A DNA stretch of 44,506 nt from an uncultured Bacilli bacterium. Lineage in GTDB: Bacteria; Bacillota_I; Bacilli_A; RF39; UBA660. The stretch is from assembly GCA_944358145.1 (NCBI GenBank), contig CALVQO010000002.1, positions 1 through 44,506 of the forward strand, in the 5' to 3' direction. The translations under genes were made by a program, and so were the position numbers. The notes under the pieces were generated by a model. The model made no database searches and had not been told where the DNA came from. It saw only the letters and a list, made by a program, of their open reading frames with translations. Every line of letters begins with the position of its first letter. Within the stretch, counting starts at the first letter, position 1. Shown here in pieces: positions 1,332 through 44,506 of the stretch.

Positions 1332-3106
1332 AAAAGGGGCTGTCGGGAAATTAAGTAATTAATTTTTCAACAGTTCTTTTATTTCGTAAAATTTAAAAAG
1401 CTCTGAAATCATAAGGAAATCAGAGCATTTTTGTGATACAATAATCTTGTTCAAGGAGTTGTATCACATGTCTTATTTTACTATAAAAAGTAGTTTTTGG
1501 CTAGTCCCCTCATATAGATGTGATGAGGAATTTTGAAAAATTGATAAATTTATGGAATTTTTAGAAAAATCTGGAGTTGGAAAAATCGTTGAAAGTGTAA
1601 AGACAAAAGATAAACAGTGTAAAGGTCGTAAAGGTTATAATCCATATAATCTTTTTGCCATGATTATATATTGTTTTGCAAAATTTAAGGCTAGTCTTAG
1701 AGATATAGAAGATAAATGTATTTTTGATTTAAGAGTTTTGTATATTATGGAAGGAAATATTCCAGATCATTCTGTCATTGGTGATTTTATAAATGAATAT
1801 ATTATTCCCTATCAATATGAAATTTTTACTACTATTACTAAACAAATAATTAAAGATTTTAACTTAACAATCGAAGACATCTTTGTTGACGGCACAAAAT
1901 TAGAAGCCAATGCTGATAAATATAAATTTGTGTGGAAACCTACAAAATATCACACTAGACTAGATATAAAAATAAAGGAATTATTAAAAGAAATGGGTTA
2001 TGTTCCAAACTCGAACAAATTAATTAAAGCTGAAGAATTGAACAAGCTTTTAAAAGATTATGCTTCAATAAATCAAATAGAAATTCCTATTCCTACAAGC
2101 AGAGGCAAAAGGTTATCAAAAGAACAAAAAAATTATAAACTTGCTTATCAATATCTTACCAAATTATTAGAATACGAAGAAAAAGAAAGAATTTGTGGTA
2201 AGAATAGAAACTCTTATTATAAAACGGATAAAGATGCAACAGCTATGGTATTAAAAAAAAGATTATTATTCTAAATTAAGTCATGATTTTCATGCAGGGT
2301 ATAACGTTCAAGTTCTAGTATCTAACTTACTAATATTGATGTATGGTGTATTTCAAGATAGAACTGATTATTATACCTTTATACCTATGAATAACCTTTA
2401 TTTTAAATATTACCAAAGGCATCCTAAAAACATATGTGCTGATTCAGGATATGGAATACATATTAATTATAAATATTTAAGAGAACATCATATTGGCAAT
2501 TATGTTAAATTTCAAACATGGAGTGGCGAAGCAAGTGGAAAATCACCTCAATTATTTTATACCTTTAATGATGGTGTAATGTGTTTAGATACTTGCATTG
2601 GAAAAGAAATACCTTTTAATCAAAACTACCATCAAAGAAATAAAGAAGGAAAATTATTTAAATTTATAGGTTGTAATAATTGTAAATATGCCTATAAATG
2701 TAAGGCTAAACTAAAACACAAAGATTATGATTATCGAACTGTCGAATTAATTCCTGATTATGAATTGTTAAAAGAAGAAGCAAGAAATAACCTACAAAGT
2801 CCTAAAGGAATAGAAATGCGAATTAACAGAAGTATACAAGCAGAAGGAACATTTGGACAAATAAAAAATAACATGAATTATGATAGAATTAGAAGAAGAG
2901 GCTTAGAAAATGTATCTGTAGAAATAATGCTTATGTGTTTAGGAGTAAATTTAAGAAAATATTTTTTGTCATTAGATGATAATAAATTTAAAAATAATTA
3001 TTGGAAAATACCTACTACTTTACACAAAGAAATATTTCCAAGTGTAAAGCCAAAAGAAAAAAGACTGTCAAGAAATTAATCACTTAATTTCCCGACAGCC
3101 CCTTTT
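1332..3106 (+). mobile_element. IS1182-family insertion sequence (~1.78 kb)
   Basis: Perfect 25-bp terminal inverted repeats: AAAAGGGGCTGTCGGGAAATTAAGT at 1332-1356 and its reverse complement at 3082-3106, bracketing the transposase ORFs. An inward-facing hairpin plus T-run lies at 1400-1433 (GCTCTGA/TCAGAGC). I found no target-site duplication. Confidence 0.8.
1552..3079 (+). pseudogene. IS1182-family DDE transposase interrupted by a frameshift in an A8 run
   Basis: ORFs 1552-2274 and 2336-3079 are consecutive in different frames. Removing one A from the A8 run at 2253-2260 fuses them as ...TAMVLKKDYYSKLSHDFHAGYNVQVLVSN.... The C-terminal part carries ...ICADSGYG... and ...AEGTFGQIKNNMNYDRIRRRGLENV..., as in IS1182/IS5-type transposases. 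Confidence 0.75.
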
Positions 3107-21263: not shown

Positions 21264-22281
21264 ATGGTTGAAAATAAAGAAGAATATTTTGAATTATTAA
21301 AGGATATTAAAAATACTTTATTAATAACAAGAAATAAAATAGTAGAAAATGCCAATAAAGAATTAATTTTGATGTATTATCGTATTGGCTTAAAATTGCT
21401 TGAAAATAATAAGTGGGGTTCATCTTTTATAGATACATTAGCTAAAGATTTAAAAATAGCATTTCCAAATTTAAAGGGAATGTCCGCTCGCAATTTAAGA
21501 TATATGCAAAAGTTTGCCAAAGAATTTGATAATGATGAATTTTTGCAAGGAGTCCTTGCAAAATTATCATGGAATCATAATCAAACATTATTAGATAGAG
21601 TGAAAGATAAAACCAAACGAAAATGGTATGCTACAGAGACAATAAACAATAACTGGTCCGTTTCTATACTTACTCATCAAATTGAAACGAAACTATATGA
21701 AAGACAGGCTTTACTTGAAAATAAGACTACCAATTTTGATACAACATTACCATCACCTTATAAGGAACAAACAAAATATTTACTAAAAGATCCTTACATA
21801 TTTGATTTTATAAATACAAACACTAATTTAAAAGAAATAGATATAGAACAAGAGTTAATCAGTAATATATCCAAATTATTATTGGAATTAGGAAATGGTT
21901 TTGCGTTTATAGGCAGACAATATCATTTAGAAATCGAAGAAGAAGACTACTACATTGACTTGTTATTTTTTGCTAGTTAGAAGTTATGTAGTAATAGAAT
22001 TAAAAACGACGGAATTTAGGCCAGAATATATAGGTAAACTTAACTTCTATTTAAGTGCAATAGATAAATATGTTAAGAAAGATAATGATAATCCTACTTT
22101 TGGTATTTTGCTTTGTAAAAATAAAAAGAAAGTAACAGTTGATTTAGCCCTAAAAGATATAAATAAGCCAATTGGAGTTAGCGAATATAAGATTTTATCA
22201 GAAATACCAGAGTATTTAACAAATACATTGCCAAGCCTAGAAGATATTGAAAAAAGATTAGAAGAAACGATAAAAAATTAA
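21264..22281 (+). pseudogene. Second YhcG/DUF1016-type PD-(D/E)xK nuclease, frameshifted
   Basis: ORFs 21264-21980 and 21955-22281 overlap in different frames. The break lies in the nuclease core (...LELGNGFAFIGRQYHLEI...YYIDLLFF / LVRSYVVIELK) at the T6 run 21966-21971. T5 would restore a single ORF. Confidence 0.75.
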
Positions 22282-27108: not shown

Positions 27109-27239
27109 ATATAACCTCTTTCTACTCTCAATAATGATATCATAAAAAAGTAGATAATTCAAGTTGCTTATCCCCATCATCTATGTTATAATTGTATAGA
27201 ATTATAAATATTTTTTGGTTTGAAAGTAGGGATACTAGA

Positions 27240-29735
27240 ATGAGTGAACAAACAATCAAAAATAATCTTTTAAGTATAATTGAAGAATCAGAACAATTAC
27301 AAGTAAATGATTTAGAAGTAGTGCCAGGAACAAGAATAAGAGTAAAAAAGGGAAGAGTAGAAGAATTTTTAAACAATGCCAAATTATATTATCAATTAAA
27401 AAATGGAGTAATTTTAACTACTCCCAATGCTTTAAATGAAATAAAACAAGTTTACTATGAATTATCTGATGAATTAGCTAAACAATTTAAAGAAAACTTA
27501 ATATCTAAAGTATCGAATATATATTCTGTAAACAAAGAAGAAGGAAAAAGATTAGAAGAACTAAATAAAAGTTTAGAAAGTAATCTTAAAGATCAAGAAA
27601 AATACCGCAAAGTAGAAAATGAATTAAGAAAAAGAGCTCCAGAAGAACCAAGAATATGGGAAGAAATAGCTAGTGTTCAAGAATATATTAAGAGTTTAGA
27701 AAATGATGAAATAAAGTTGAGAAATACTATCGCTGAAATCAAAGATAAAGTAAATAACTCTACCAAACAAATCATTGAAGAGCAAATGCAAATATTAAGA
27801 AATAACTACATAAAAGCCAAACCAAGAAATCACGAAACTGGATTTGATGGTGCACCAATATTAAGTTATGATAAAGAAGAATATGATAATTTATATATTT
27901 TATTGAAAGTAATTGAAAACGTAAATGAAAAATTACCAATTATAAATGTAAATGATTCATTATTTGTAAATCCTCATCAAGTAGATACCACCAAAGTATT
28001 ACTACCTAAACTAAATTTTTTAAGAACAGCGAATATAGAAATAACTTCAAAGAAACCTGAGTTATTAGAATTAAACACAGAATTAAAAGAACAAATCACT
28101 TTAGAATTAAAAGAATTAATTAAACGGGCGAAAGAACATCCTAATGAACCACTAGCTCCAGGTAAAGAAGTTTTAGCAAGTGATTTAGAAAAATATAATC
28201 TATTAGCAAGACAATTTGAAATCTTAACAATGATTTATGATACCGATGAATTAACAACTGTTGAAAATGCTCAAATTCCTGTTGAAAAAGAGCAAGAATA
28301 TAAAATGATTAGTAATAAATTATCCAGTTTAAAAGAAAAACAAAAGGCACCAAAAGAAATCGATTTAAGTGTTAATCAAGCTCTAATTGAACAAATTAGA
28401 AAAGAAATCAATGATCTTGTTACCAATATATCATTAAATAATGATGGTTTAGAAAGATTTAATCTTTTAGCAAGACAAATTGAGATTCTAAATAATGTGG
28501 ATAAAAAAGGTAAATTAATTCAAGTTGAAAATATTATAATTAATGCAGAATTTGCTCATGAATATAAAGAAATTTTAACGAAATTAGAAGAACTAAAAAA
28601 TAAGAAAGAAGCATCACCATTAATTATAAATGAGTCATTAATAAAAGATACAGAAGCCCAAATCAATAGTTTACGTGAGCATGATCAAGTATCTCCTATA
28701 AACTTAGAAGAATACGAACTTTTAAACAAGAAAATAAATATTTTAAAAGAAGTAAAATCAACGGACAGTTTAGTTTCAATTGATGGAGCAACCATTTCTG
28801 CATTAAAAATAGATGAGTATGTTGATATTTTAGAAAAATTAAATAATCTTAAAAAAGCTAAAGATGAACCAACTAAACCAGAGGAAATACAAATAGAGCC
28901 TCCTAAAGAACCATTAAAAAGAAAAGCCGTAAAATTGATTAGAAAAACAACAAAAAAAGAATGGTGGCAACAAAACTGGAAAAAAGTTGCTGGAATAGGA
29001 TTATCTTTAACAGTCGTAGTAGCCGCATCAACCACATTAATTCCAACAATAATTTATGCTAATAGTTGTATAGCCTTAGCAAGTCCAGCCATAGCCGGAC
29101 CACTAGGAGCAATAAATAAAGTTTTAGCTAGTATTGGCAATGTATCGGCATCTAACCTAAACTTCAATATTGCCGCTTCTCATGCTTTTACTGCATCACT
29201 TACAGCTTTAGCTAAAATAGGTTTAATTGGTGGAGGAATAGTTGCTTCTTCCAAACTAATAAAGAGTTTAAGTAAAGAAAACACTTATTCAAATGAAGAA
29301 AAAGAAAATGCTAAAAATAAAATTAAAGAATTTGGTCAAGAAATACTTAAAGAAGCCAAAAGCTTAGGAAAAAAGATCAAAGATAAAAGTGTAGATTATT
29401 TAAATAGTATGAATAAAGATTTAGTAATAGGCGCTGATTTTAAAGAAATAGAAGAAAATGTAGGTAAGAAAATAGAAGAAGAGGATAGACTTGCAGCCGA
29501 AGAAAGAATAAATGAGCGTTATGAGCAAATCAAAAGTGAAGATACACCAATAGAATCTAAAGAAGAAATACCTGAGATTATTGGCATAAAATCAAGTCCA
29601 ATTAAGACGGTAATTCCTTTACCTGAGCAAATGCCAAGTAAATCATCATCAGTTACTATTCCTAATGATGATGAAATCGCTCAAATATTAAATAGCATTT
29701 TCCCAGAAGATACAAGTTTAGGAAGAGGTAGATAA
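27240..29735 (+). CDS. Large repeat-containing coiled-coil/membrane protein, function unknown
   Basis: ATG 27240 (MSEQTIKNN...) is preferred. Four internal modules begin at 27882, 28194, 28458 and 28713 (Y/F-x-LL-x-x-x-E-IL...V-EN...EY..I..KL..LK). An Ala/Gly-rich hydrophobic block lies at about 28975-29260, followed by an acidic tail. Confidence 0.6.
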   Translation: MSEQTIKNNLLSIIEESEQLQVNDLEVVPGTRIRVKKGRVEEFLNNAKLYYQLKNGVILTTPNALNEIKQVYYELSDELAKQFKENLISKVSNIYSVNKEEGKRLEELNKSLESNLKDQEKYRKVENELRKRAPEEPRIWEEIASVQEYIKSLENDEIKLRNTIAEIKDKVNNSTKQIIEEQMQILRNNYIKAKPRNHETGFDGAPILSYDKEEYDNLYILLKVIENVNEKLPIINVNDSLFVNPHQVDTTKVLLPKLNFLRTANIEITSKKPELLELNTELKEQITLELKELIKRAKEHPNEPLAPGKEVLASDLEKYNLLARQFEILTMIYDTDELTTVENAQIPVEKEQEYKMISNKLSSLKEKQKAPKEIDLSVNQALIEQIRKEINDLVTNISLNNDGLERFNLLARQIEILNNVDKKGKLIQVENIIINAEFAHEYKEILTKLEELKNKKEASPLIINESLIKDTEAQINSLREHDQVSPINLEEYELLNKKINILKEVKSTDSLVSIDGATISALKIDEYVDILEKLNNLKKAKDEPTKPEEIQIEPPKEPLKRKAVKLIRKTTKKEWWQQNWKKVAGIGLSLTVVVAASTTLIPTIIYANSCIALASPAIAGPLGAINKVLASIGNVSASNLNFNIAASHAFTASLTALAKIGLIGGGIVASSKLIKSLSKENTYSNEEKENAKNKIKEFGQEILKEAKSLGKKIKDKSVDYLNSMNKDLVIGADFKEIEENVGKKIEEEDRLAAEERINERYEQIKSEDTPIESKEEIPEIIGIKSSPIKTVIPLPEQMPSKSSSVTIPNDDEIAQILNSIFPEDTSLGRGR

Positions 29736-30004
29736 TGAATAAAGAAGATATTATCACATTAGAAGATAATTTAGAATACATGGTATTAGATACAGTAGAA
29801 TTAAATCAGGATAAATATTTATATTGTGTGAGTATTGATCAAGAAGAAATGCCTACAAATGAATATAAATATTTTAAAGAAATTAATGAAAATGGTAATT
29901 TATTTACCGCAGAAGTAGAAGATCAAAACATAATCGAAGCAATAACAGCTTTATTAGCAACTGATTATTTAGATAGTGTAACAGACGATGAACAAGACGT
30001 TTAA
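29735..30004 (+). CDS. DUF1292-like small acidic protein
   Basis: An 89-aa protein, ...IITLEDNLEYMVLDTVELNQDKYLYCVSID..., consistent with the DUF1292/UPF0473 pattern. Its start overlaps the upstream stop (TAATG). Confidence 0.45.
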   Translation: MNKEDIITLEDNLEYMVLDTVELNQDKYLYCVSIDQEEMPTNEYKYFKEINENGNLFTAEVEDQNIIEAITALLATDYLDSVTDDEQDV

Positions 30005-33381: not shown

Positions 33382-34602
33382 ATGAATTTAAATGAATTAA
33401 AAATAAATGGTGTGAATGAAATTGAACTAAATGATTCCCTAGAAACCTCCTTACTAAGTTTAAAAATTTCAATAAATGAAAATACAGTCATACCAGAAAG
33501 TAACGAACTTACAATTTATGTAGATACTAATTCTACTCCAACAGAAAACAGAAAAACTTATACCTTTTCTTTAGAAGAAAAATTATCTATTGGCGATGTA
33601 TTTATTGCTGAACCAATAATAAAAAATAAAAAAATTGAATTAAAAGCGTATATAGAAAGAACAACAGATGAAATAGAAGATTTAGAATATCAAGATATTT
33701 CTTTATTTGCAGGAACAAATTATATTTATACCAATTATGAAAATGCTACTATAGATATAATGTATCCTAAAAATAATGATTTAGTAAAATATTATTTAAA
33801 TAATATTTTATATAGTTTAAATAATAAAGATAAAATATTAAGTTTAGATGATATTTATTTCAAAGATGCATTTACAAAAGTAGATGATAATATAAATGCA
33901 AGCTTTAATAATTTAAGTATCGATTGTCTATCATCAAATAATAATAAATTCAATCTAGATAGTGATGGAAATTTAACAGTAAATAGTATTACTGCTTCTT
34001 CAAATACAGGATCGGATATTGATTTTGATGAAATTTACCCAATTGGTTCAGTATATTTAAGTGTTAATTCTACTAACCCTAGTGTATATTTTGGTGGTAC
34101 TTGGGAACAAATAAATGGTTATTATTTATATGCTGGAAACACAAATGAAACTGGCGGAAGCAATACTTCCGGAGCCTCTTCTGGAAATACGGGAGCTACT
34201 ACATTAACATTAAGTCAAATTCCAAGTCATAGCCATTCCATTCCTTCTTTAAGTGGTACTGCAGCTTCCAATGGAACTCATGCTCACAATATCGGAGCAG
34301 ATTTCGATGGTGGAGCAGGAACTGCACGATATACTGTTCATTCCAGAGGAACATCAGGAGCTGGCTATTTAAAAGCTACAAGTTCAGATGGAGCACATAC
34401 TCATACTGTAACAACGAGTGCTAGTAATACTGGTTCATCAGGAAGTACAACCTCACATACTCACACCTTAAATAACCATACACATACAATCCTCCATTTT
34501 ACAGCTTATATGTATTTAAAAGAACAGCTTAAAAAAAGCATCATTGATGCTTTTTTAGTTTATCGCCAATTCCATATTTTAAAAAGTTCATACACTAACT
34601 AA
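33382..34602 (+). CDS. Phage tail-fibre/baseplate-like protein with five HxH motifs; 3' end apparently frameshifted
   Basis: ...IYPIGSVYLSVNSTNPSVYFGGTWEQINGYYLYAG..., a Gly/Ser/Thr-rich region, and SHSHS, THAHN, AHTHT, SHTHT, NHTHT (34225-34488). After 34488 the annotated frame reads through a terminator hairpin. The alternative frame gives NPPFYSLYVFKRTA* ending at 34532. Confidence 0.65.
   Translation: MNLNELKINGVNEIELNDSLETSLLSLKISINENTVIPESNELTIYVDTNSTPTENRKTYTFSLEEKLSIGDVFIAEPIIKNKKIELKAYIERTTDEIEDLEYQDISLFAGTNYIYTNYENATIDIMYPKNNDLVKYYLNNILYSLNNKDKILSLDDIYFKDAFTKVDDNINASFNNLSIDCLSSNNNKFNLDSDGNLTVNSITASSNTGSDIDFDEIYPIGSVYLSVNSTNPSVYFGGTWEQINGYYLYAGNTNETGGSNTSGASSGNTGATTLTLSQIPSHSHSIPSLSGTAASNGTHAHNIGADFDGGAGTARYTVHSRGTSGAGYLKATSSDGAHTHTVTTSASNTGSSGSTTSHTHTLNNHTHTILHFTAYMYLKEQLKKSIIDAFLVYRQFHILKSSYTN
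34533..34556 (+). terminator. Rho-independent terminator
   Basis: AGCATC (34537-34542) pairs with GATGCT (34546-34551), preceded by an A-run and followed by T5-6. Confidence 0.75.
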
Positions 34603-34615
34603 AGAGGGAGGTTAT

Positions 34616-34981
34616 ATGAAAAATATTAAAGCTTATGTAAACATTAAAACAGATTATGATTTAATTAATTTAAGAATAAAATTACTAGAAGAAAAAGAAT
34701 TACAAATTATAAAAGAAAAAAGTTCACTGGAAGAGTTCAAAACTAAATTATATGATATTTTAAATCAAATAGAAGAAAAACTAAAAGATTTAAAAGGAAT
34801 AGAAAGAGAATTATTTTATGAAGTAATTGTAAAAGGAACTAACATAACAAGAGCAGTAGATAAAGTATCAATAACTTATGATGTAGATCCATCAACTATT
34901 TGGAAATATTATTACCCTAAAATAAAAGATGATATAAAAATGATTGAAAAAGAAGCCAAGTCTAGCGAGATTCTAGTATAG
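34616..34981 (+). CDS. Small coiled-coil plus putative HTH protein (ArpU/sigma-70 region-4-like?)
   Basis: Strong RBS AGAGGGAGG. The N-terminal half is coiled-coil. The C-terminal half ...ERELFYEVIVKGTNITRAVDKVSITYDVDPSTIWKYYYPKI... resembles a region-4-type HTH. Weak assignment. Confidence 0.4.
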   Translation: MKNIKAYVNIKTDYDLINLRIKLLEEKELQIIKEKSSLEEFKTKLYDILNQIEEKLKDLKGIERELFYEVIVKGTNITRAVDKVSITYDVDPSTIWKYYYPKIKDDIKMIEKEAKSSEILV

Positions 34982-35011: not shown

Positions 35012-38000
35012 ATGAAAGAATTAAAACATCTTCGAAAACGAAATGAAAAGCATTTCTTAAATGATGATGGGACAATTTCACTATATCTCTATAACAATGA
35101 TATTCATTATTTAAAAAATGGTGAATATTTAGATATTGATAATACATTAATAGAAGAAGAAAATACACTCATCAATAAAGAAAATAATTTTCATACTCGT
35201 TTTCCAAAAGATAAAAACACAAATTTATTAGTAGATATTACCAAAGATAATTACTATCTAAAAATATATTTACAAAATCATAAAAACAATAATATGAAAC
35301 TAAAAAGTAATAAAGAAAACATTAAATTAGAAAACATATTAAATGATATCGATATTGATTATAATGTAGTATCTACTAAATTAAAGGAATCAATTATTTT
35401 AAAAAATAAAAATAATATTCCACTATCTTTATCTTTCAAAATAGATACAAACTTAGAACTAGAATTAGAAGAAAAAGGAAGTATTCTAGCGAAAGATAAT
35501 GATAAAACAATATTTGTAATTGCATCTCCTTTTATGAAAGACAATAAAGGAGTATACAATTACAATATAAGCTATGATTTAAATTTAAAAGATAATACCT
35601 ATTTTTTAAATTTAAATTTAGACCAAGAATGGTTAAATGAATCAGAATTTCCAGTAATAATTGATCCAACAATTTCTAATATTGAAAATAATGGAATTGC
35701 TCAGGATGCTTATATTTACTCATGGGATGATGTAAACAATTATACTTATGATAATACTTTATTAAAAGTGGGAGTAGATCCAAATGCCACAACAGACATT
35801 TATGAAACACTAATTAAATTTAGCTTACCAAATATAGGAACAGGTTGTGATATAGTTGATGCGAGAGCCTATTTAATAAGCCATGGATCAGATATATCTT
35901 CCAATGATAATAATAACTACATCTATGTGTATGAAATGGAAAAAGAATGGAACGAAAATTCAGTTAATTTTAAAGATCTAGTATCAAGCCATAATGAATA
36001 TGTGGAAGACTATTTTCTACCTACAAGAAGCAAATTAGAAGGTGACAAAATTTATTTACAAACAAGTTCATTTAATATAACAAGATTAATTAAAAAATGG
36101 TATTCTGGAGAGCCAAATTATGGAATTCTACTAGCAACTAATAATATGCCAGAAAATTGTAAAGAGTATACTTTTTATTCTAAAGATAATGATCTTATTG
36201 GTAATGTTGATCCCAAACCGTATTTAGTAATTACTTATCGTAATCAAAATGGTTTAGAAGATTATATGTCATATCAAACCCAAGAATATACTGATGGAGC
36301 TAGTTACATTAATAATTTAACAGGAAACCTGACAACTAATTTTAATTTAAATGAAACCATTGAAGGTAAATATCCAATTAGTTTAAGTCTAATTTATAAT
36401 ACTAATGATGTTGTATTAAATAATGACTATGGTTATAAAGTAGGATATAAATTAAATCTTCATGAAATAATAAAAGAAGTAACCATTGATCAAACTAGTT
36501 ATTTAGAATATCTTGATGCAGACGGTACAATTCATTATTTTAGAAATGAAATAGATGAAAATAATAATATTATAGAAAATCAATTTGTTGATGAAGATGG
36601 TTTAAAATTAACTGCAACCAAAGAAGAAAATCAAATTACCATAAAAGATATGAATAACAACAAATATATATTTACTTTAAATAATAATATTTATTATTTA
36701 ACCAAATTAATGAATACTAGTAATGATACAGTAACAATTACTTATGATTCAAATAATAGAATTAATAAAATAACAGATGCCAATAATTCTAATATTAATA
36801 TTACTTATAATGCGAATGATATGATTATTACTAGTGATAGTACTACAACTACAATGAATTTTAATAATAATCAAATCTCAAGTATTGTAACAAAAAATGG
36901 TACAACGAGTTTTACTTATAATAATAATGGCTTAATTGAAAAAATAACTGATACAAATGGTTTAAGTAAAAGCTTTAATTATTATGAAGTAAGCCCATAT
37001 AAAGTAAAAAAAGTAGTAGAATATGGATTAAATAATGAAGAAGGAGCTTCTTTAGAATTCATTTATGATTTTATGAGTACTAAGGTTGTAAATAATAAGG
37101 GGAAACAACTTATCTATTCTTTTAATTTAATTGGAAATACGATAGGAGTTTCTAATTTAACAGAAGAAGTAAATTTATCAGATGCTTATGGTAGGGGTTC
37201 GACATATCTAACTGAATCATCAATTGATAATAAAATAAATAAAAATGTTAATGATATATCTTCAAATATTTTATCAACAAAATACACCAAAAACTTATTA
37301 AGTAATAGTAGTTTTGAAGAAGAAGGAGGAATGGGAAGAAGTACAGCTTATCCTGGACGAACTAATGCCTATGCTAGAACAGGAAGTTACTCCCTAGATT
37401 TAAACCAAGGAAGTATTGTAGAATATGTAGATAAGAGTAATATTTACTATACGTTTAGTGGATACTTTAAAAATGATGAAGAAATAGAAATAGTAGCTAG
37501 TTCTCAAGCTTATGCTACCGGCCCGTGTTATTTATATTTTGGAACTATCCCTAAAAATGAAGAATTTACTCGTTATAATTTTTCTTTCCTATTGCCAGAA
37601 AATAAATCACTAATTTTAATTGATTTTAATGTAGCAAACAATGGTAATGCTTATTTAGATGATATGCAATTAGAAGAAGGTAGTATTGCCAATTATTACA
37701 ATTTTGTAGAAAATGGTGATTTTTATGATGGAGCAAATGGTTGGAATGTTGATGCAAATACCAATTATGCTATAATAAATGAAAAAAATAGCAAAGTATT
37801 GCAAATAGATTTTAAACAAGATCAAATTACATCTTTCTCAAAATCAATTCCTCTTCATGGAAGAAAAGATGATATTTATTGTTTATCATTTTGGTATAAA
37901 AATGATGGAATTATTCCAAGTATATCTAATAATACAATTGATTTAAAACATTTCTTAAATTTTGAATATACAAATCTAGTAGAAGATAATGAAGAGGAAG

Positions 38001-41000
38001 AAGATAATTTAAACTATTATAATAATAATTGGACTTATTTTTCTAAAACTTATAAAGCTAAAGATAATTTTGATAAAATAAACTTAAATTTCAAATTCAT
38101 AAAAAGTTTAGGTAAATTTCATATTACAAATATTATGTTAACAAATGCTATTATGTTTGAAAAAAATTCATACAAAAAAGAAACAGGAGTTTTAGAAACA
38201 ATAGAAGAATCTGAAAACAATAAAACAACCTTTAAATATGATGAAAATAATCAATTGATGAGTATGTTTAATCCTCTTGGAAATAACTTTAAATTTGAAT
38301 ATGATAATAATGTAACAGATAGAGTATTAAAAGGAATATCTCCATCAGGTATATCTAATGAAATTGAATATGATGAATATGGTAATCCGATAAAAACAAT
38401 AATTAATAATGTTAATCCAGATCAAGATGTATTAAATAATAAAAATTATTATATACGTCTTAAAGGAACCCCAAAGTATTTAGACTGTGACTTTTTAACA
38501 AATGAAATACTTTTAAAAGAAAATAATTGTAGTCATGATACATTTACACTTTTAAAAGAAGAAGATTATTATCGAATCAAAATAAACAACAAATATTTAA
38601 CTCTTGTTAATAATGAAATAAAATTAACCAAACAAGTAACAGAAGAATCATTATTTAATCTATCAAAAAATGATAATGATAGTTATTTAATTACACCTAA
38701 AACAAAATATATTACAACGAGTTCTGAAGGAGGAACAGTAATTGATTTAGTTAATTATAATTTAGCAAATGTTAATGATAAATTATCATTAAAAACAAGT
38801 GATACAACAGAAAGTGAAGAACAATTCTATTTTGAAGATATAGATACACAAGCTTTTATTGAATCAACAGCAGAATACACTCTAGACGGTAGATTTGTTA
38901 CGAAAACAATAGATTCCTTAGGCAAAGTTACAACTTATGATATCAATACCACGAATGGACTTACCAATAGTATAACAGATGCCAACAACATAACAACTTA
39001 TTACACTTATAATGATAAAGATCAAATAACAAAAGTAAAAAAAGATGAAAAAGAAGTAAACTATACATACAATACCAATAATTTACTATCTAAAATAACA
39101 GCAAATAACAAAGAATATAATTTTACCTATGATAATTTCTTAAATGCTAAACAAATTAAGATAGGAGATAATATTACTTTAATTACCAATAATTATGAAG
39201 AAAATAATGGTAATCTTTTGTCAAGTACTTATGGTAATGGTGATACTATTAGTTATACATATGATGAACTTGATAGAGTTAAAACAAAGACAAATGATAC
39301 AAATACATACAATTATCACTATGATAATTTAGGAAACTTAACTAAAATTACAGGCTTTTTAACTTCACATTCATATAACTTTGATTCGAATAACCAAATC
39401 ATAGAATATTCTCAAGGAGATGGAGTATCCGATGATAATTACTATATAAGATATAATTATGATAAAAATAGCAATATTACTAATAAAAAATATAAACTAA
39501 ATTATCTTACAAATACCATAAAACAAGAAACAGCTTTCGAATACAATATAGATGATGCAATAACCAAAGTAACATTCGATAACAATAACTTAAATTATAG
39601 TTATGATTATCTAGGAAGATTAACTAGTAAAGATATAAATGGTAATAACAAAGTAGAATATACATATATAACGAATGGTAATAAAACATCAACTGTATTA
39701 AAATCAATGAAGATAAACAATGATTTATATGAATATTACTATGATAATTTATATAATATCACCGATATTTATATAAATAATAAATTAATAAATCATTACG
39801 AATATGATAACTTTAACGAACTAATTAAAGAAGATAATTATAATTTAAATAAAACAATAAGATACACTTATGATAATGCTGGAAATATCTTAAAGAAACA
39901 AGAATATGAGTTAGATACTTATAATTTATTACATACAAATACTTATGAATATAATAATGCTAATTGGGAAGACCAATTAACAAAATACAACAATGAAACA
40001 ATTACTTATGATGCTATAGGTAATCCATTAATCATAGGAAATAAAACTCTAACTTGGGTAAATGGCAGACAATTATCAAGTTACACAGATAATGATTTAA
40101 ATATTACTTATGCTTATAATAAAGATGGAATTAGAGACCAAAAAGTAGTAAATAATACAATAACTAACTATTTTACAGAGAATAACAAGATAATATTTGA
40201 ACAAACAGGAAATAATATGGTATACTATATACGAGATGAAGAAGGAAGTTTAATAGGATTTAAATATAATAATACACTTTATTATTATATTAAAAACATG
40301 CAAGAAGATATTATAGGAATAACGGATAGTAATTATAATTTACTATGCAGTTATGAATATGATTCATGGGGAAAACTAATCTCTATTAAAGATAATAATG
40401 GAAGTATTATTACTGATCCATCTCATATAGGATATATCAATCCATTTAGATATAGATCATACTATTATGATAATGAAACAAAATTATATTATCTAAATAG
40501 TAGATACTATAATCCTGAATGGGGTAGGTTTATTAATGCAGATAATCTTTTTGAACAAAATAACTATTTATTGGGAAACAATTTATATATTTATTGTACT
40601 AATAATCCAGCTAATTATTTAGATTATACTGGAAGAAGTATTTCTTTAATAGGGATAGATGAGTTATATGAATATAGCTATGCTGTTGTTTGCACAAAGG
40701 ATAACGGATATTATAAAGTATTTATTGATATAGAAGGGAAAAATTTTGTAGCAGATATTAATGGAAATGCAATAAGATTCAATTTTGAAGTAAATTCTGA
40801 TTATAATCATAAATATGCTTATACTTTAGCAACTGCTGCATATAATGCATATACTATTGTTTATGGAGAAAAAATGTATGGTAGAACTGTAGAAGGAATT
40901 TCAATGGAAATAAAATTACATGATTCCTTATATAAATGGACTGGAATGAGTAATTTTATGATTGCAGACATGGGTACTTCTAAAAATGATAATAACGCAA

Positions 41001-41146
41001 TTATTTCAGAAATATTAAGATTTAAAAACCTTGCAATAAAAAAAGTAACTTCTAATAATTTTGCAACTGAATCAAAAACCGAAACCAAAAAACCAAAGTA
41101 TACAGGTTTATTAGATTTTCTTTTAAAAAATATTTTGATACTCTAA
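35012..41146 (+). CDS. YD/RHS-repeat polymorphic toxin (2044 aa) with an unassigned C-terminal toxin domain
   Basis: Many YD repeats (...ITYDSNNRINKITDANN..., ...YTYNDKDQITKV..., ...YTYDELDRVKTKT...). A DNRLRE-like beta-sandwich lies at about 35650-36250 (...YETLIKFSLP...ARAYLISH...EWNENSVNF...). The core end is PFRYRSYYYDNETKLYYLNSRYYNPEWGRFINADN. The demarcation block is NLYIYCTNNPANYLDYTGR (to 40636). About 169 aa of variable C-terminus follow (40637-41143). Confidence 0.9.
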   Translation: MKELKHLRKRNEKHFLNDDGTISLYLYNNDIHYLKNGEYLDIDNTLIEEENTLINKENNFHTRFPKDKNTNLLVDITKDNYYLKIYLQNHKNNNMKLKSNKENIKLENILNDIDIDYNVVSTKLKESIILKNKNNIPLSLSFKIDTNLELELEEKGSILAKDNDKTIFVIASPFMKDNKGVYNYNISYDLNLKDNTYFLNLNLDQEWLNESEFPVIIDPTISNIENNGIAQDAYIYSWDDVNNYTYDNTLLKVGVDPNATTDIYETLIKFSLPNIGTGCDIVDARAYLISHGSDISSNDNNNYIYVYEMEKEWNENSVNFKDLVSSHNEYVEDYFLPTRSKLEGDKIYLQTSSFNITRLIKKWYSGEPNYGILLATNNMPENCKEYTFYSKDNDLIGNVDPKPYLVITYRNQNGLEDYMSYQTQEYTDGASYINNLTGNLTTNFNLNETIEGKYPISLSLIYNTNDVVLNNDYGYKVGYKLNLHEIIKEVTIDQTSYLEYLDADGTIHYFRNEIDENNNIIENQFVDEDGLKLTATKEENQITIKDMNNNKYIFTLNNNIYYLTKLMNTSNDTVTITYDSNNRINKITDANNSNINITYNANDMIITSDSTTTTMNFNNNQISSIVTKNGTTSFTYNNNGLIEKITDTNGLSKSFNYYEVSPYKVKKVVEYGLNNEEGASLEFIYDFMSTKVVNNKGKQLIYSFNLIGNTIGVSNLTEEVNLSDAYGRGSTYLTESSIDNKINKNVNDISSNILSTKYTKNLLSNSSFEEEGGMGRSTAYPGRTNAYARTGSYSLDLNQGSIVEYVDKSNIYYTFSGYFKNDEEIEIVASSQAYATGPCYLYFGTIPKNEEFTRYNFSFLLPENKSLILIDFNVANNGNAYLDDMQLEEGSIANYYNFVENGDFYDGANGWNVDANTNYAIINEKNSKVLQIDFKQDQITSFSKSIPLHGRKDDIYCLSFWYKNDGIIPSISNNTIDLKHFLNFEYTNLVEDNEEEEDNLNYYNNNWTYFSKTYKAKDNFDKINLNFKFIKSLGKFHITNIMLTNAIMFEKNSYKKETGVLETIEESENNKTTFKYDENNQLMSMFNPLGNNFKFEYDNNVTDRVLKGISPSGISNEIEYDEYGNPIKTIINNVNPDQDVLNNKNYYIRLKGTPKYLDCDFLTNEILLKENNCSHDTFTLLKEEDYYRIKINNKYLTLVNNEIKLTKQVTEESLFNLSKNDNDSYLITPKTKYITTSSEGGTVIDLVNYNLANVNDKLSLKTSDTTESEEQFYFEDIDTQAFIESTAEYTLDGRFVTKTIDSLGKVTTYDINTTNGLTNSITDANNITTYYTYNDKDQITKVKKDEKEVNYTYNTNNLLSKITANNKEYNFTYDNFLNAKQIKIGDNITLITNNYEENNGNLLSSTYGNGDTISYTYDELDRVKTKTNDTNTYNYHYDNLGNLTKITGFLTSHSYNFDSNNQIIEYSQGDGVSDDNYYIRYNYDKNSNITNKKYKLNYLTNTIKQETAFEYNIDDAITKVTFDNNNLNYSYDYLGRLTSKDINGNNKVEYTYITNGNKTSTVLKSMKINNDLYEYYYDNLYNITDIYINNKLINHYEYDNFNELIKEDNYNLNKTIRYTYDNAGNILKKQEYELDTYNLLHTNTYEYNNANWEDQLTKYNNETITYDAIGNPLIIGNKTLTWVNGRQLSSYTDNDLNITYAYNKDGIRDQKVVNNTITNYFTENNKIIFEQTGNNMVYYIRDEEGSLIGFKYNNTLYYYIKNMQEDIIGITDSNYNLLCSYEYDSWGKLISIKDNNGSIITDPSHIGYINPFRYRSYYYDNETKLYYLNSRYYNPEWGRFINADNLFEQNNYLLGNNLYIYCTNNPANYLDYTGRSISLIGIDELYEYSYAVVCTKDNGYYKVFIDIEGKNFVADINGNAIRFNFEVNSDYNHKYAYTLATAAYNAYTIVYGEKMYGRTVEGISMEIKLHDSLYKWTGMSNFMIADMGTSKNDNNAIISEILRFKNLAIKKVTSNNFATESKTETKKPKYTGLLDFLLKNILIL

Positions 41147-41160
41147 GTACTAGAAAGCAT

Positions 41161-41697
41161 GTGATGAATATGAAAAATATATTATTTAATTTAGCTTTAT
41201 TATTTTTACTATATTTTAGTAATCTTTTTGGCATAAAGCATGAATCTACAATAATAAATATTTTGTTACTCTTAGTAATAATAATTTTAATCATAATAAA
41301 TTTAAATAATATTTTAAAAAACAAAAAAACATATATTAAATTAATTAATTTTATTTTAGTATTTTTAATATTTGGAGTTTTATTTACAAAAACGTTTTAT
41401 GAATTAATTTTCTTTCCTCCAAACTTTTTAACAGATTTATCTCAAAGAGGAGAATATACCAATCTTCAGAATAATGATAAATTATATATTTTAAATTATG
41501 ATGATGGTGGAAAAAGTGGCCCAAGTATTGTATGGCTAGAAAAAGAATTGATTTTAAACTTTAAATGTGTTAAAGAAATAGCAGTATCAAATGCATACGA
41601 TTATAAATTTAATTTAGAAGAAATATACAAAGAATTATCCAAAAAAGATTATGGAATTTGTTATAATAATTTTGAAGTTATAGAAATGAATGATTAA
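41161..41697 (+). CDS. Three-TM membrane protein, presumptive cognate immunity protein
   Basis: It starts 15 nt after the RHS stop. It has three hydrophobic helices (ILFNLALLFLLYF..., IINILLLLVIIILIIINL, LINFILVFLIFGVLF) and a soluble tail of about 90 aa. The role is inferred from position only. The start could be 41161, 41164 or 41170. Confidence 0.5.
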   Translation: MMNMKNILFNLALLFLLYFSNLFGIKHESTIINILLLLVIIILIIINLNNILKNKKTYIKLINFILVFLIFGVLFTKTFYELIFFPPNFLTDLSQRGEYTNLQNNDKLYILNYDDGGKSGPSIVWLEKELILNFKCVKEIAVSNAYDYKFNLEEIYKELSKKDYGICYNNFEVIEMND

Positions 41698-41856: not shown

Positions 41857-41889
41857 AAGAACTAATGGAATAAATTTACATTAGTTCTT
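41857..41889 (+). terminator. Cassette-junction hairpin, copy 1
   Basis: A perfect 11-bp stem AAGAACTAATG (41857-41867) with CATTAGTTCTT (41879-41889), then TTTAT. Confidence 0.7.
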
Positions 41890-41895
41890 TTTATA

Positions 41896-41955
41896 TATTT
41901 GAAGAAACAGGAAATAATATGATATACTATAATACGAGATGAGGAAGGAAGTTTA
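41896..41955 (+). repeat. Relic of the RHS core coding sequence (copy of 40194-40252)
   Basis: TATTTGAAgAAACAGGAAATAATATGaTATACTATAaTACGAGATGAgGAAGGAAGTTTA aligns with 40194-40252 with 3 substitutions and a 1-nt indel. In the RHS gene this region encodes IFEQTGNNMVYYIRDEEGSL. Confidence 0.85.
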
Positions 41956-42647
41956 TGGTAAAGTTTAAAGAAAATGATATATTTGCATTAAAAATAGAAG
42001 ATGAAACTAGCGAGTATTATGGAAGATATATAATATTAATAAAATGCAGTAATTCTGAATGGGAAGAAAGTACTAATAAACAACTTTTTCGATTTAAAAT
42101 ATCTAAAAATAAAACTTTACCCCAATTAAACGAAATTAATTCATTAGAATATATTATAACCTATATTCAACATGAATTAAAAAAATATTTACCATTTGAT
42201 GGTTGCAAAAAATTTAAAGAATTAAAAAAGGAAAGAGATAAAATTCAAGTGTATCCAGATGAATATGGCTATTTATATAGTTTCATTACTAAAATTTTTG
42301 GAGTAAGTAAAAATATTCCAAAAAACTTAATTTATATCGGGAATATGGCTTTAGAATTACCTTATCATGAATATATTCCAGTATGTGAATATGGATATAT
42401 ACGTGAATATTCAGGATGGGAAAATATAGAAAAAGAATTAATAAAAGATTATAAATCTTATAATTTAAAACAAAGCAAAATATTTTGTAAAGAAGCAGCA
42501 ACAAATGAAAAAAACGAAGTAATAGATTTAATTAAGCTTGAAAAAAGACTAGAAAACATAAATTATGACAAAATCTATTTAAATGAAGAAGCAATAGAAG
42601 ATTCTCTAACCTATGTAGGAGGAGAAGACGAAGATCCATTTAAATAA
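41955..42647 (+). CDS. Cytoplasmic acidic protein (230 aa), orphan-immunity candidate
   Basis: The ATG lies exactly where the RHS-relic homology ends. Its RBS, GAGGAAGGAAG, comes from the relic. No TM helices and no recognisable motifs. It is followed by copy 2 of the junction hairpin. Confidence 0.55.
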   Translation: MVKFKENDIFALKIEDETSEYYGRYIILIKCSNSEWEESTNKQLFRFKISKNKTLPQLNEINSLEYIITYIQHELKKYLPFDGCKKFKELKKERDKIQVYPDEYGYLYSFITKIFGVSKNIPKNLIYIGNMALELPYHEYIPVCEYGYIREYSGWENIEKELIKDYKSYNLKQSKIFCKEAATNEKNEVIDLIKLEKRLENINYDKIYLNEEAIEDSLTYVGGEDEDPFK

Positions 42648-42653
42648 ATATAG

Positions 42654-42686
42654 AAGAACTAATGTAAATCAATTGCATTAGTTCTT
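42654..42686 (+). terminator. Cassette-junction hairpin, copy 2
   Basis: The same 11-bp stem AAGAACTAATG (42654-42664) with CATTAGTTCTT (42676-42686), a different loop, then TTTAT. Confidence 0.7.
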
Positions 42687-42695
42687 TTTATCTAT

Positions 42696-42724
42696 TTGAA
42701 TAAAAAGTTAACACATGATATACT
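42696..42724 (+). promoter_or_regulatory. Sigma-A-type promoter of the third cassette
   Basis: TTGAAT (42696-42701), a 17-nt spacer ending in TGa, then TATACT (42719-42724). It sits in the same position as TTGAAG-N18-TATACT at 41899-41928. Confidence 0.5.
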
Positions 42725-42794: not shown

Positions 42795-43949
42795 ATGAAC
42801 GAGTTATTTAAAATAGATACAATTATTTCTTTTAAAGAGTATTTAAAAATCAAAAAATTTTATAAAAAAACAAATCAAATAATAATATTTATTTCCATTT
42901 TAATTATCTTAATATCTATTTTAAATTTTATAAAAGATTTTCATATCATTTTTTTAATCGCTAGTATAAGTGTGTTCGTAATATATCTTGATTTTTTAAT
43001 CTATCTATTTTTATTACTAATTTATTATTATCGATATAATAAACAAAAAAATGAATTAAATTATACCATCTTTTTCTATGAAAACCAAATGAAAAGAAAA
43101 GGAAGAAAAGTTGAAGATATCATCAAATATGAAGATATCGAAAAGATAAAAGAAAATAAAAAAGAACTAACATTGATCTTAAAAAACAATAATATCAAAA
43201 TATTAAAATCTAATGATCAAAAAGAAATAATAAGTTTTATTAAAAAAATCCAAAAACAAAACAAAAATCAAATAGTTCAAACCAATAAAATGTTAAATCA
43301 CTTATTTATTACATTGATATGCTTATTTTGTATTATTCTATTATTAAATTTAAGTTTAATAGATAATAATACCAGTAATTCTTATTGTTACATGTGGACT
43401 ATGTGGTTAATATTACCTTTATCCATATTTTCGATAATAATTGGTTTAAAATATAAAGATAAATCTTCAAAAAGTATTAAAAATATTATAGGTGGTTCTC
43501 TAATTACTTTTCTTGCTTTAATTTATGGCTTACTTTCATTTATACCAAATAATGAAATAGATTATCAAGAAATTTATCAATTAGAAGATATTATAGGTAT
43601 AGAATTACCTAAAACAGGGATATACAGAAAAGAAGAAATAAAAAACAGTAATTTAGAAAATCATATCGTCCATGAATTAATTTTTTCTAAAAAGAACGAA
43701 TATTTAAAAGTAGAACAGGAGATAGAAGCAAGCAACAAATGGTTAGATTCAGATGAAGTATCTCGTGAGTTATCCTTCTTTTTACCAGTAGTTTGTAGAT
43801 TCAGTTGCTCTTATTCAGTTTATATTGATGGAGCCAAAACGCAAAATACTATTCCAAAAGAAAAAGGAACATATCACATTTATGCGATGCTATATAATGA
43901 TGATAATCAAGTGTTAAGAATTGACGAATATACTTATAATTACAACTAA
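42795..43949 (+). CDS. Multi-TM protein with a YcxB-like N-terminal module and a C-terminal soluble domain (384 aa)
   Basis: RBS AAAGGAG. Two TM helices are followed by a PH-like segment (...IKYEDIEKIKENKKELTLILKNNNIKILK...), as in YcxB-type proteins. Then come about three more TM helices and a soluble domain of about 150 aa. Confidence 0.5.
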   Translation: MNELFKIDTIISFKEYLKIKKFYKKTNQIIIFISILIILISILNFIKDFHIIFLIASISVFVIYLDFLIYLFLLLIYYYRYNKQKNELNYTIFFYENQMKRKGRKVEDIIKYEDIEKIKENKKELTLILKNNNIKILKSNDQKEIISFIKKIQKQNKNQIVQTNKMLNHLFITLICLFCIILLLNLSLIDNNTSNSYCYMWTMWLILPLSIFSIIIGLKYKDKSSKSIKNIIGGSLITFLALIYGLLSFIPNNEIDYQEIYQLEDIIGIELPKTGIYRKEEIKNSNLENHIVHELIFSKKNEYLKVEQEIEASNKWLDSDEVSRELSFFLPVVCRFSCSYSVYIDGAKTQNTIPKEKGTYHIYAMLYNDDNQVLRIDEYTYNYN

Positions 43950-44046: not shown

Positions 44047-44506
44047 ATGGATATTATATACGAAAATTGGTTTATTATAATGCTTATACTTTTATCAATT
44101 ATCATATATTTTCCAATTTCATTAATTTTAAATAAATGTAAAATAGTGATAGTAAAAAAATAATATTTATAAAAATATCAATAAGTTTAAGTTGCATATG
44201 TGCATTAGTTTGGATTTTTTCTTATTTTTATATAAGAATTAAAAGTAATAGCATTGAAATGGCAGAAAATAATATAGTATCTCATATATCAATGTTAACT
44301 TTTTTGACACTATCAATACCGGGAATACTCATGTTGATGTTTGGCAACATTAAACCACCCAAACCAGATAAATATTTGTTAAAACAAGATAATTATCTAG
44401 ATTTTAGTAATTATTTAAATAAAAGGATGTTATTAAATGACTATCAAGAAGTATATAGTGAAGAAAATCTAAAAATATATAAGAAGATCATAAAAAAGAA
44501 TAAACA
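44047..44506 (+). pseudogene. Membrane protein gene interrupted at an A7 run; 3' end outside the window
   Basis: MDIIYENWFIIMLILLSIIIYFPISLILNKCKIVIVKK* stops at 44161-44163. The frame that opens at the A7 run (44154-44160) stays open to the window end (IIFIKISISLSCICALVWIFSYFY...). One extra A would fuse the two. Promoter TTTACA-N17-TATATT lies upstream. Confidence 0.45.

Follow-up and report, generated by a model that had tools for sequence, protein, structure and literature searches.

A leaderless RHS toxin/immunity locus of gut Bacilli with a linked phage-type fibre gene and, in relatives, lysis genes

Rearrangement hotspot (RHS) proteins of the WapA type carry a swappable toxin behind a shell of tyrosine-aspartate (YD) repeats, and the delivery of such RHS or teneurin-like toxins in Gram-positive bacteria is stated to be unresolved (PMC13018210, PMC12704120). 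Two described routes are precedents for the release of large toxins. Tc toxins are released by the type 10 secretion system (T10SS; PMC10847048), and clostridial toxins are released through the holins TcdE/TcdL (PMC6200909, PMC3369941). The locus described here lies on contig CALVQO010000002.1 of an uncultured Bacilli bacterium, and the whole stretch of 44,506 nucleotides that was analysed is called the window. Its central gene encodes a 2044-aa RHS protein without a signal peptide, which is preceded by a phage-type fibre gene and a gene for a 121-aa protein and is followed by a candidate immunity gene. This locus is, with high confidence, an RHS toxin/immunity module, and the RHS gene with its C-terminal toxin domain (CT) and immunity family is a new addition to the RHS/WapA kind. 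The cassette has the following features.

33382–34602, + strand: phage tail-fibre or collar-like protein with a Gp10_C domain (Pfam Gp10_C, 6.2e-13) and HxH motifs
34616–34981, + strand: 121-aa protein, N-terminal coiled coil and helix-turn-helix (HTH)-like C-terminal block (alignment A9)
35012–41146, + strand: RHS protein, 2044 aa
35012–36331, + strand: N-terminal module of the RHS protein (aa 1–440), DNRLRE/CBM96-type, opening with MKELKHLRKRNEKHFL, no signal peptide
36332–40636, + strand: YD-repeat shell and RHS-associated core, with the demarcation motif NNPANYLDYTGR at its end (40636)
40442–40546, + strand: core-terminating block, located in the translation
40580–40636, + strand: demarcation block NLYIYCTNNPANYLDYTGR, located in the translation
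40637–41143, + strand: CT of 169 aa (aa 1876–2044), after the RHS core
41105–41143, + strand: conserved terminal hydrophobic helix GLLDFLLKNILIL at the end of the CT
41161–41697, + strand: cognate immunity candidate, 15 nt after the RHS gene, three transmembrane helices and a soluble C-terminal domain of ~95 aa (hydropathy)

The original prediction, made from the letters of the window, described one open reading frame (ORF) for a 2044-aa RHS protein, and the family searches agree with it. The protein, which is read from an ATG start, matches Pfam RHS_repeat (6.4e-25), TIGR01643 (4.2e-16) and TIGR03696 Rhs_assc_core, the last at aa 1783–1874 (40358–40633) with 58.3 bits against a cut-off of 32.5. 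A profile search of the Protein Data Bank (PDB) matched the solved Rhs proteins 8H8A (2e-25), 8QJD, 7Q97 and Tse5 (8CP6). The positions given before for the core-terminating block, the demarcation block, the CT and its hydrophobic tail were reproduced within 1 nt, but the "dozens" of YD repeats came down to about 17–20 recognisable motifs. The Asp in YYYDNETK and the Asp in FINADN, 24 residues apart, are both kept in the protein, and they may be the counterparts of the catalytic pair of the TcC/Rhs aspartyl autoprotease, which frees the CT.

The N-terminus cannot be longer, since an in-frame stop lies 10 codons before the ATG. Within the first 60 residues the 19-residue Kyte-Doolittle mean peaks at −0.3, and no 19-residue stretch of the whole RHS protein exceeds 1.6, values too low for a signal peptide or a transmembrane helix. 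The earlier statement that the N-terminus has neither a signal peptide nor an LXG/WXG family domain is upheld, but this region is not featureless. Residues 1–440 align end to end with proteins that are named DNRLRE domain-containing or carry PF24517 (CBM96), and the full-length homologues with PF24517 or the NCBI name DNRLRE are 37–44% identical. For the N-terminus of the window's own protein, neither Pfam nor NCBIfam yielded a match at E ≤0.1. Judged by its homologues, the module probably binds carbohydrate or a cell surface. All close homologues begin with MKE(I/L)..R..EKHFL, and the distant ones put a Sec signal peptide and a linker before the same domain. Residues 1–221 also share 24–26% identity with "YD repeat" proteins of the virion structure in Bacillus phages (PBC1 gp18, BCE1, Wes44 and Carmen17), whose genes come right behind the tape measure gene, with holin and endolysin a few genes further on.

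A scan of one genome per GTDB species returned more than 405 relatives of the N-terminal module, and the best 80 were examined (loci of relatives carry L numbers below). All of these 80 are from animal-gut metagenome-assembled genomes, namely uncultured Bacilli, "Tenericutes", Mycoplasma sp. CAG:776 and Ca. Caccenecus, and the best locus among the GTDB species representatives is 67% identical to the window. The signal peptide is absent in all members of this clade, and their RHS ORFs are intact and ~2000–2170 aa long in most species. At 82/84 loci the RHS gene has a fibre homologue directly upstream. The control set consisted of 80 metagenomic relatives of the signal-peptide-bearing cousins, which were collected by a scan with a three-sequence alignment, and fibre linkage was counted with a fibre hidden Markov model (HMM) in loci with at least 1.5 kb of upstream sequence. 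A fibre gene was found within 1.5 kb upstream of 68 of the 69 leaderless genes versus none of the 26 signal-peptide-bearing ones (Fisher 1.8e-22, a p-value that overstates the independence of events because the leaderless clade may be monophyletic). Locus L171, the sole leaderless gene in the control set, is also the sole one there with a fibre gene. These results show that the absence of the signal peptide coincides with the fibre gene, and that fibre linkage is near-obligate in the clade.

Besides its Gp10_C domain, the fibre protein matches tail protein (7e-15) and tail fibre (1e-14) families of PHROGs, tail proteins of Blautia/Faecalimonas phages and antireceptors of Lactobacillus delbrueckii phages. 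Conservation in the fibre family is found in the first 50 aa and in the final strand (HNNMPPYL.VY.WKR), with a variable middle, a pattern also seen in receptor-binding proteins. The gaps from the fibre gene to the 121-aa gene and from there to the RHS gene are 13 and 30 nt. In the window, the fibre gene has a 4-nt deletion at about 34490 (AATTAAT region) relative to L009 and L010, so that the conserved end NPPFYSLYVFKRTA with its stop is read in another frame (stop at 34532) and an unrelated tail stands in its place. The ending lost from the ORF frame is INPPFYSLFVFKRTA followed by a stop, the conserved form being INPPFYSL(Y/F)VFKRTA and a stop, and the annotated fibre ORF continues to 34602 across the conserved hairpin GCATCATTGATGC. 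An assembly error in an AT-rich repeat could explain the deletion, as could a real lesion; with this 3' frameshift the system may be impaired in this genome. The RHS, 121-aa and immunity genes of the window are intact.

The 121-aa gene stands between the fibre and RHS genes in 28/84 loci, or in 29 loci by a second count, and so counts as a third, optional part of the cassette. The protein shares the conserved block GIE..LYYEIVV.G.NVTKAVDKV....STIWKNYYPKVK and matches phrog_10157, a family of unknown function, at 2e-4. It belongs to no family of Pfam, NCBIfam or the PDB, and Pfam searches with 23 members together with the PDB profile search gave coiled-coil noise only.

In an unbiased clustering of all neighbouring genes, small membrane proteins and peptidoglycan hydrolases recurred next to the cassette. 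By cluster membership, such lysis genes occur in 42/81 loci and in 23 of the 34 loci with full flanks. Lysis HMMs, built from the leaderless clade, matched at 44/80 leaderless loci, TcdE-family holins included, versus 1/84 loci of the signal-peptide comparison set, so that linkage to lysis genes is frequent in the clade. Most of these genes are found 0.6–2 kb from the cassette and on its strand, and their place is either just before the fibre gene or just past the immunity genes. The families concerned are Phage_holin_4_1, TIGR01593 "toxin secretion/phage lysis holin" (60–65 bits, cut-off 40.2), Peptidase_M23 and Peptidase_M15_3, with XhlA-like and holin_5_2-like proteins as weaker matches. 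In the two nearest relatives a holin and an M23 peptidase follow the RHS gene, at 3.8 kb in L004 and at 1.7 kb in L009, and the order in L089 is CT, immunity gene, XhlA-like gene, holin and M23 peptidase. One feature at the end of the window bears on these genes.

44259–44506, + strand: partial ORF, cut by the window end (tblastn to a gene of L009)

Its product is 53% identical over 76 aa (E = 2e-22) to a gene of L009 (Mycoplasma sp. CAG:776) that directly precedes the holin-endolysin pair there, and because of this match we infer that a lysis pair sits just beyond the 3' end of the window.

Small sigma-70-region-4-like proteins are encoded upstream of the cassette in 23 relatives, and many loci carry these or XRE regulators upstream of the fibre gene; the scores of both are below the family cut-offs. 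No sigma-70-region-4-like protein is present in the window. A recurring gene set just upstream of the fibre gene was also seen in L035, L039, L042, L058, L083 and others. Its members are an XRE-type HTH protein with a membrane anchor, a secreted protein of 250 aa and a sigma-70-region-4-like protein of 160 aa. The window lacks this set, which may be devoted to the regulation of the cassette.

The original prediction placed a gene for three transmembrane helices plus a soluble tail in the immunity position, which is what was found, although its start is more likely the ATG at 41170, where the homologues begin, giving a product of 175 aa. The best match of this protein in the protein collection is 95% identical. 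Proteins of the same family lie 3' of the CT family of the window in all 7 contexts with downstream sequence, i.e., the window, L001, L002, L003, L088, L108 and L089, whose CT identities range from 41 to 95%.

L001, L002 and L003: CT 82–92% identical to that of the window; downstream protein of the same family, 72–95% identical
L088: CT about 60% identical to that of the window; downstream protein of the same family, 57% identical
L108: CT 41% identical to that of the window; downstream protein of the same family, divergent
L089: CT 44–48% identical to that of the window; downstream protein of the same family, divergent

A W(L/Y)E(K/Q).L.L.F(K/S) block is common to this family (alignment A5), and the close homologues P0001-3 sit 3' of the same CT. 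Since the same family follows the CT in all 7 contexts, the toxin/immunity reading holds, and the co-variation of CT and 3' gene, which the original prediction had proposed as a check, was found. In the syntenic locus L004 (IleRS 91% identical), the RHS body is 64–73% identical to that of the window, but the CT is Tox-WTIP and the immunity protein is DUF2691. CT and immunity gene are exchanged as a unit, which is classic polymorphic toxin/immunity behaviour. The positive-inside rule places the KNKKTYIK loop of the immunity protein in the cytoplasm and its soluble domain outside, and this predicted outside position would fit a toxin that is met at the outer face of the membrane.

The CT consists of a beta-sheet-plus-helices core of ~115 aa, a Lys-rich linker and the terminal hydrophobic helix, and its family shares the motifs M.GRT..G, E.x.H and AD(M/I)GT.KNDxNAW. 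As had been stated before, it could not be placed: no match was obtained in Pfam, NCBIfam or PHROGs, in a word-indexed search of 5.8 billion proteins, or in the profile search of PDB sequences. A HMMER search of 1.84 billion representative proteins gave 8 matches, of which 5 are real and all of these are RHS C-termini or orphan RHS fragments; the leucine-rich-repeat proteins P0035 and P0038 were rejected as spurious. The single-sequence AlphaFold2 (AF2) model of the CT was poor (mean confidence, pLDDT, of 50), and a 7-sequence alignment was used instead. The resulting model has a pLDDT of 68 overall and of 80–94 for residues 10–115, which AF2 predicts as a four- to five-stranded sheet with two long helices. 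Foldseek with this model was uninformative against the PDB (best E 0.38), and its best match in BFVD, an uncharacterised crAss-like phage protein with E 4e-3 and a template-modelling score of 0.38, was also treated as uninformative. The CT family is therefore tiny and has no assignment to a characterised toxin family. The Lys-rich linker, the terminal hydrophobic helix and the probably extracellular soluble domain of the immunity protein make action at the membrane or envelope most likely for this CT.

The 75 sister CTs from relatives fall into 27 clusters. A recognisable Pfam toxin or hydrolase domain is present in only 15 of them (Ntox44 in 6, GIY-YIG in 4, Tox-WTIP in 3, DUF6973 in 1 and Hydrolase_2 in 1), and about 80% have no Pfam match. 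At least one transmembrane helix is predicted in 39 of the 67 proteins in the immunity position (58%), and at least two in 25/67. Because such proteins are this common and some of them adjoin nuclease-type CTs, a membrane immunity protein is weakly diagnostic of the target, and the step from it to an envelope target, which the original prediction took, is a suggestion. A CT of no family with a membrane immunity protein is the rule in this clade and is not special to the window. Many sister CTs (L014, L022, L023, L026, L036, L048, L049, L072, L079 and others), none of which has a Pfam family, start either with a Lys-rich amphipathic helix that leads into Gly-rich GxGxG stretches or with a hydrophobic Ala/Gly-rich helix, which suggests membrane-inserting entry or pore-forming segments in these sisters.

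Downstream of the immunity candidate, the window has further genes of immunity type and a repeated element.

41857–41910, + strand: 54-nt hairpin and promoter-like element, with a repeat copy at 42654–42707
41955–42647, + strand: 230-aa orphan immunity-type gene, of a family that immediately follows the RHS gene at 8 other loci (gene clusters, tblastn)
42795–43949, + strand: 384-aa multi-pass membrane protein, orphan immunity-type gene (homology to L004)

The 230-aa product matched no Pfam family, and the L004 homologue of the 384-aa protein (52% identity) directly follows an orphan RHS core/CT module. Both genes are read as orphan immunity genes because their families hold the immunity position elsewhere. 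The two 54-nt direct repeats are 83% identical, each with a 13–16-bp hairpin and then TTGAA..N17..TATACT, and one copy precedes each orphan gene; this arrangement suggests that the immunity cassettes are modular and separately transcribed. Orphan RHS core-end/CT modules with their own immunity genes were also seen after the main immunity gene in L001 (1702–2892), L004 (16701–19270) and L108 (721–1857). The orphan CT of L108 belongs to the CT family of the window, has a frameshifted tail and stands directly after a window-type immunity gene. In L088 (592–1566) a window-type CT module forms an in-frame fusion with a ribosomal-protein-L7Ae-like gene that adjoins ylxR, an orphan toxin cassette inserted in the nusA-infB operon region of another genome.

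The model to which we incline, by a little more than an even chance, is a phage-derived RHS toxin that is released by lysis and targeted by its fibre. The toxin and a trimeric fibre would be made in the cytoplasm, and a linked holin and endolysin would release both, by lysis or by holin-dependent export in a fraction of the cells. The release step is proposed by analogy with Tc toxins (T10SS), with C. difficile TcdA/TcdB (TcdE) and with tailocins. After release, attachment to the surface of related cells would fall to the fibre and the CBM96 module, and delivery of the CT to the RHS shell. The product of 41161–41697 would protect siblings, and the two further downstream genes would be stockpiled orphan immunity genes. 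More tentatively, and at somewhat less than an even chance, gut Bacilli may have repurposed a phage tail-tip and lysis module as a new mode of RHS trafficking, in which the signal peptide was lost, the fibre (with the HTH-like protein) became an obligate partner and a TcdE-type holin and an endolysin took over release. Such a soluble "RHS bacteriocin" would be a monoderm counterpart of the T10SS/Tc system directed against bacteria, with the CT/three-helix pair of the window as an envelope payload family. The original prediction had called the export route unexplained, which is right in that the window has no export genes; it had overlooked the fibre gene, the 121-aa gene, the CBM96-type N-terminus and the immunity type of the two orphan genes at 41955–42647 and 42795–43949, and the comparative data now point to holin/endolysin release.

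Several findings weigh against release by lysis and targeting by the fibre. No holin or endolysin gene is present in the window, which includes only 3.4 kb downstream of the RHS gene, and the fetched flanks of 36 of the 80 relatives hold no lysis gene. The lysis HMMs come from the leaderless clade, so that the comparison with signal-peptide loci of other taxa is biased. The fibre association could reflect one ancestral event followed by inertia, the putative partnership of fibre and RHS protein is proposed from gene linkage, and the fibre gene of the window is frameshifted at its conserved C-terminus. The extracytoplasmic topology of the immunity protein is a prediction by the positive-inside rule. 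Nuclease-type sister CTs such as GIY-YIG would need entry into the target cytoplasm, a step that the model leaves unexplained.

These genes might instead be the tail-tip and lysis region of a decaying prophage, in which the RHS protein is, or formerly was, a virion tail protein for binding or breaching the wall and the fibre and lysis genes are leftovers. This would account for the resemblance of aa 1–221 to Bacillus phage virion proteins encoded beside tape measure, holin and endolysin genes, for the matches of the fibre to phage tail proteins and antireceptors, and for the occurrence of the cassette on three IMG/VR "viral" contigs, with an extra phrog_372 tail protein upstream in L097. However, the 10 kb upstream in L097 hold, besides this tail protein, the endolysin, and no capsid, terminase, portal or tape-measure gene was found there or in the window. 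The only widely common neighbours in the 80 loci are fibre, 121-aa, lysis, regulator and immunity genes, and the flanks are housekeeping genes (among them ileS, mraY and a penicillin-binding protein (PBP) gene). Variable CTs, cognate immunity genes and arrays of orphan CT/immunity modules are what marks toxins used between bacteria, and the RHS ORFs have stayed intact in most species. A decaying prophage is therefore considered unlikely, and the cassette resembles not a prophage but a tail-tip and lysis module that has been domesticated.

Export of the RHS protein by an unlinked system, either T7SSb (a type VII secretion system, T7SS) or an unknown exporter, would make the fibre and lysis neighbours unrelated or simply co-regulated. 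The window without export genes and the 36/80 relatives without detectable lysis genes agree with such export, and that of leaderless Gram-positive RHS/teneurin-like proteins is an acknowledged open question (PMC13018210). It is nevertheless improbable, as the N-terminus is not of the LXG/WXG-type helical kind and the same domain follows a Sec signal peptide in the cousins, the loss of the signal peptide coincides with the gain of the fibre (68/69 versus 0/26), and the lysis genes abut the cassette on its strand. It is less probable still that the system is inactive or decaying in this genome and that the toxin/immunity pair and the orphan immunity genes are kept as protection against the toxins of neighbours. 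The fibre deletion and the promoter-like elements of the two orphan genes agree with this reading. Against it, no lesion interrupts the 6.1-kb RHS ORF, the 121-aa gene or the immunity gene, the deletion could come from the assembly, and close metagenomic relatives keep the same CT/immunity pair at 90–95% identity. Release by lysis with targeting by the fibre stays the preferred reading.

The rest of the window is ordinary chromosome, with mraZ, rsmH, a PBP gene, tgt, ileS, an ABC transporter and insertion sequence (IS) fragments, and ileS is directly upstream of the cassette in the window and in four relatives. Consistent with the first description, no T7SS or type VI secretion system (T6SS) family was matched in window ORFs of at least 100 aa, and no ess genes occur in the 44 kb. 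Some other genes of the window were noted in passing. A DUF1016/YhcG PDDEXK nuclease gene occurs twice (307–1214, − strand, and 21264–22281, + strand), and both copies look disrupted because each is split into an ORF for the N-terminal domain and an ORF for the nuclease domain. The IS-type transposase at 1552–3079 is in two pieces, a DUF772 ORF and a DDE_Tnp_1_6 ORF, and probably belongs to an IS that is frameshifted or decayed. Two ORFs at 27192–29735 (847 aa) and 29735–30004 (89 aa) lie between pgm and ileS, a synteny that is kept in L004 and L008. The 847-aa protein is 35% identical in relatives and belongs to no Pfam or PHROGs family.

Several known categories were considered for the locus and rejected. 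A tailocin or complete prophage was dismissed because sheath, tube, tape-measure and baseplate genes are missing from the window and none is conserved across the 80 loci. A T7SS LXG/WXG toxin does not fit, given the DNRLRE-type N-terminus, the lack of such a domain in Pfam or NCBIfam searches and the lack of ess genes in the 44 kb. A T6SS Rhs effector was rejected because no PAAR, VgrG or T6SS family was matched, the host being a monoderm of the Bacilli, and the contact-dependent inhibition route for lack of its defining domains. WapA-type Sec export was rejected because there is no signal peptide and the ORF cannot be extended upstream.

If the preferred reading is true, lysis-based, T10SS-like release, described for insecticidal Tc toxins and clostridial exotoxins, would reach polymorphic toxins used between bacteria as well. 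The export and delivery of 200-kDa RHS or teneurin-like toxins in Gram-positive bacteria becomes a testable question. The host lineages (Ca. Caccenecus, "Mycoplasma sp. CAG:776" and other uncultured Bacilli) are abundant in the gut and their ecology is otherwise inaccessible, and the clade is a catalogue of payloads without a known family, about 80% of the CTs including that of the window.

No description of an RHS/fibre/lysis cassette was found in full-text searches of the literature, and as far as these searches tell, the combination of fibre, leaderless RHS protein, immunity gene and lysis genes is previously undescribed. With WapA-type Rhs proteins (B. subtilis WapA; Streptococcus suis WapA, PMC12704120) the locus shares the YD shell, the RHS core, the swappable CT, the immunity gene directly 3', the orphan modules downstream and, judged by its homologues, probably a DNRLRE-type N-terminal domain. 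WapA-type proteins have a Sec signal peptide and LysM-like wall anchors, whereas the present clade is leaderless and linked to fibre and lysis genes. With Tc (ABC) toxins and their T10SS (Yersinia entomophaga, PMC10847048) it shares a leaderless giant toxin with its payload in an RHS cocoon, a separate oligomeric receptor-binding component and a nearby phage-derived holin/endolysin, the last in relatives and not in the window. In contrast to Tc toxins, no TcA pentamer and no TcB/SpvB domain were found (Pfam/NCBIfam), and the partner is a small Gp10_C/collar-type fibre. There is also no spanin, unlike in Tc/T10SS, because the producer is monoderm, and since the payloads are polymorphic and paired with immunity genes, the targets would be bacteria and not insects. 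The likeness to loci of the pathogenicity locus (PaLoc) type and to C. perfringens BCN5 (TcdE/UviB holin, TcdR/UviA sigma factor; PMC6200909, PMC3369941) lies in a leaderless large toxin and, in the relatives' loci, in the TIGR01593 holin, an endolysin or its remnant and the sigma-70-region-4-like proteins of 23 relatives. Here, however, an RHS cocoon with polymorphic CT/immunity pairs takes the place of the glucosyltransferase, a fibre is the partner, and the sigma-like scores are below the cut-offs. Tailocins and phage receptor-binding proteins resemble this system in the phage-derived fibre, in holin/endolysin release and in the logic of narrow-spectrum antagonism, but killing here would be by an enzymatic or membrane-active RHS payload instead of tail puncture.

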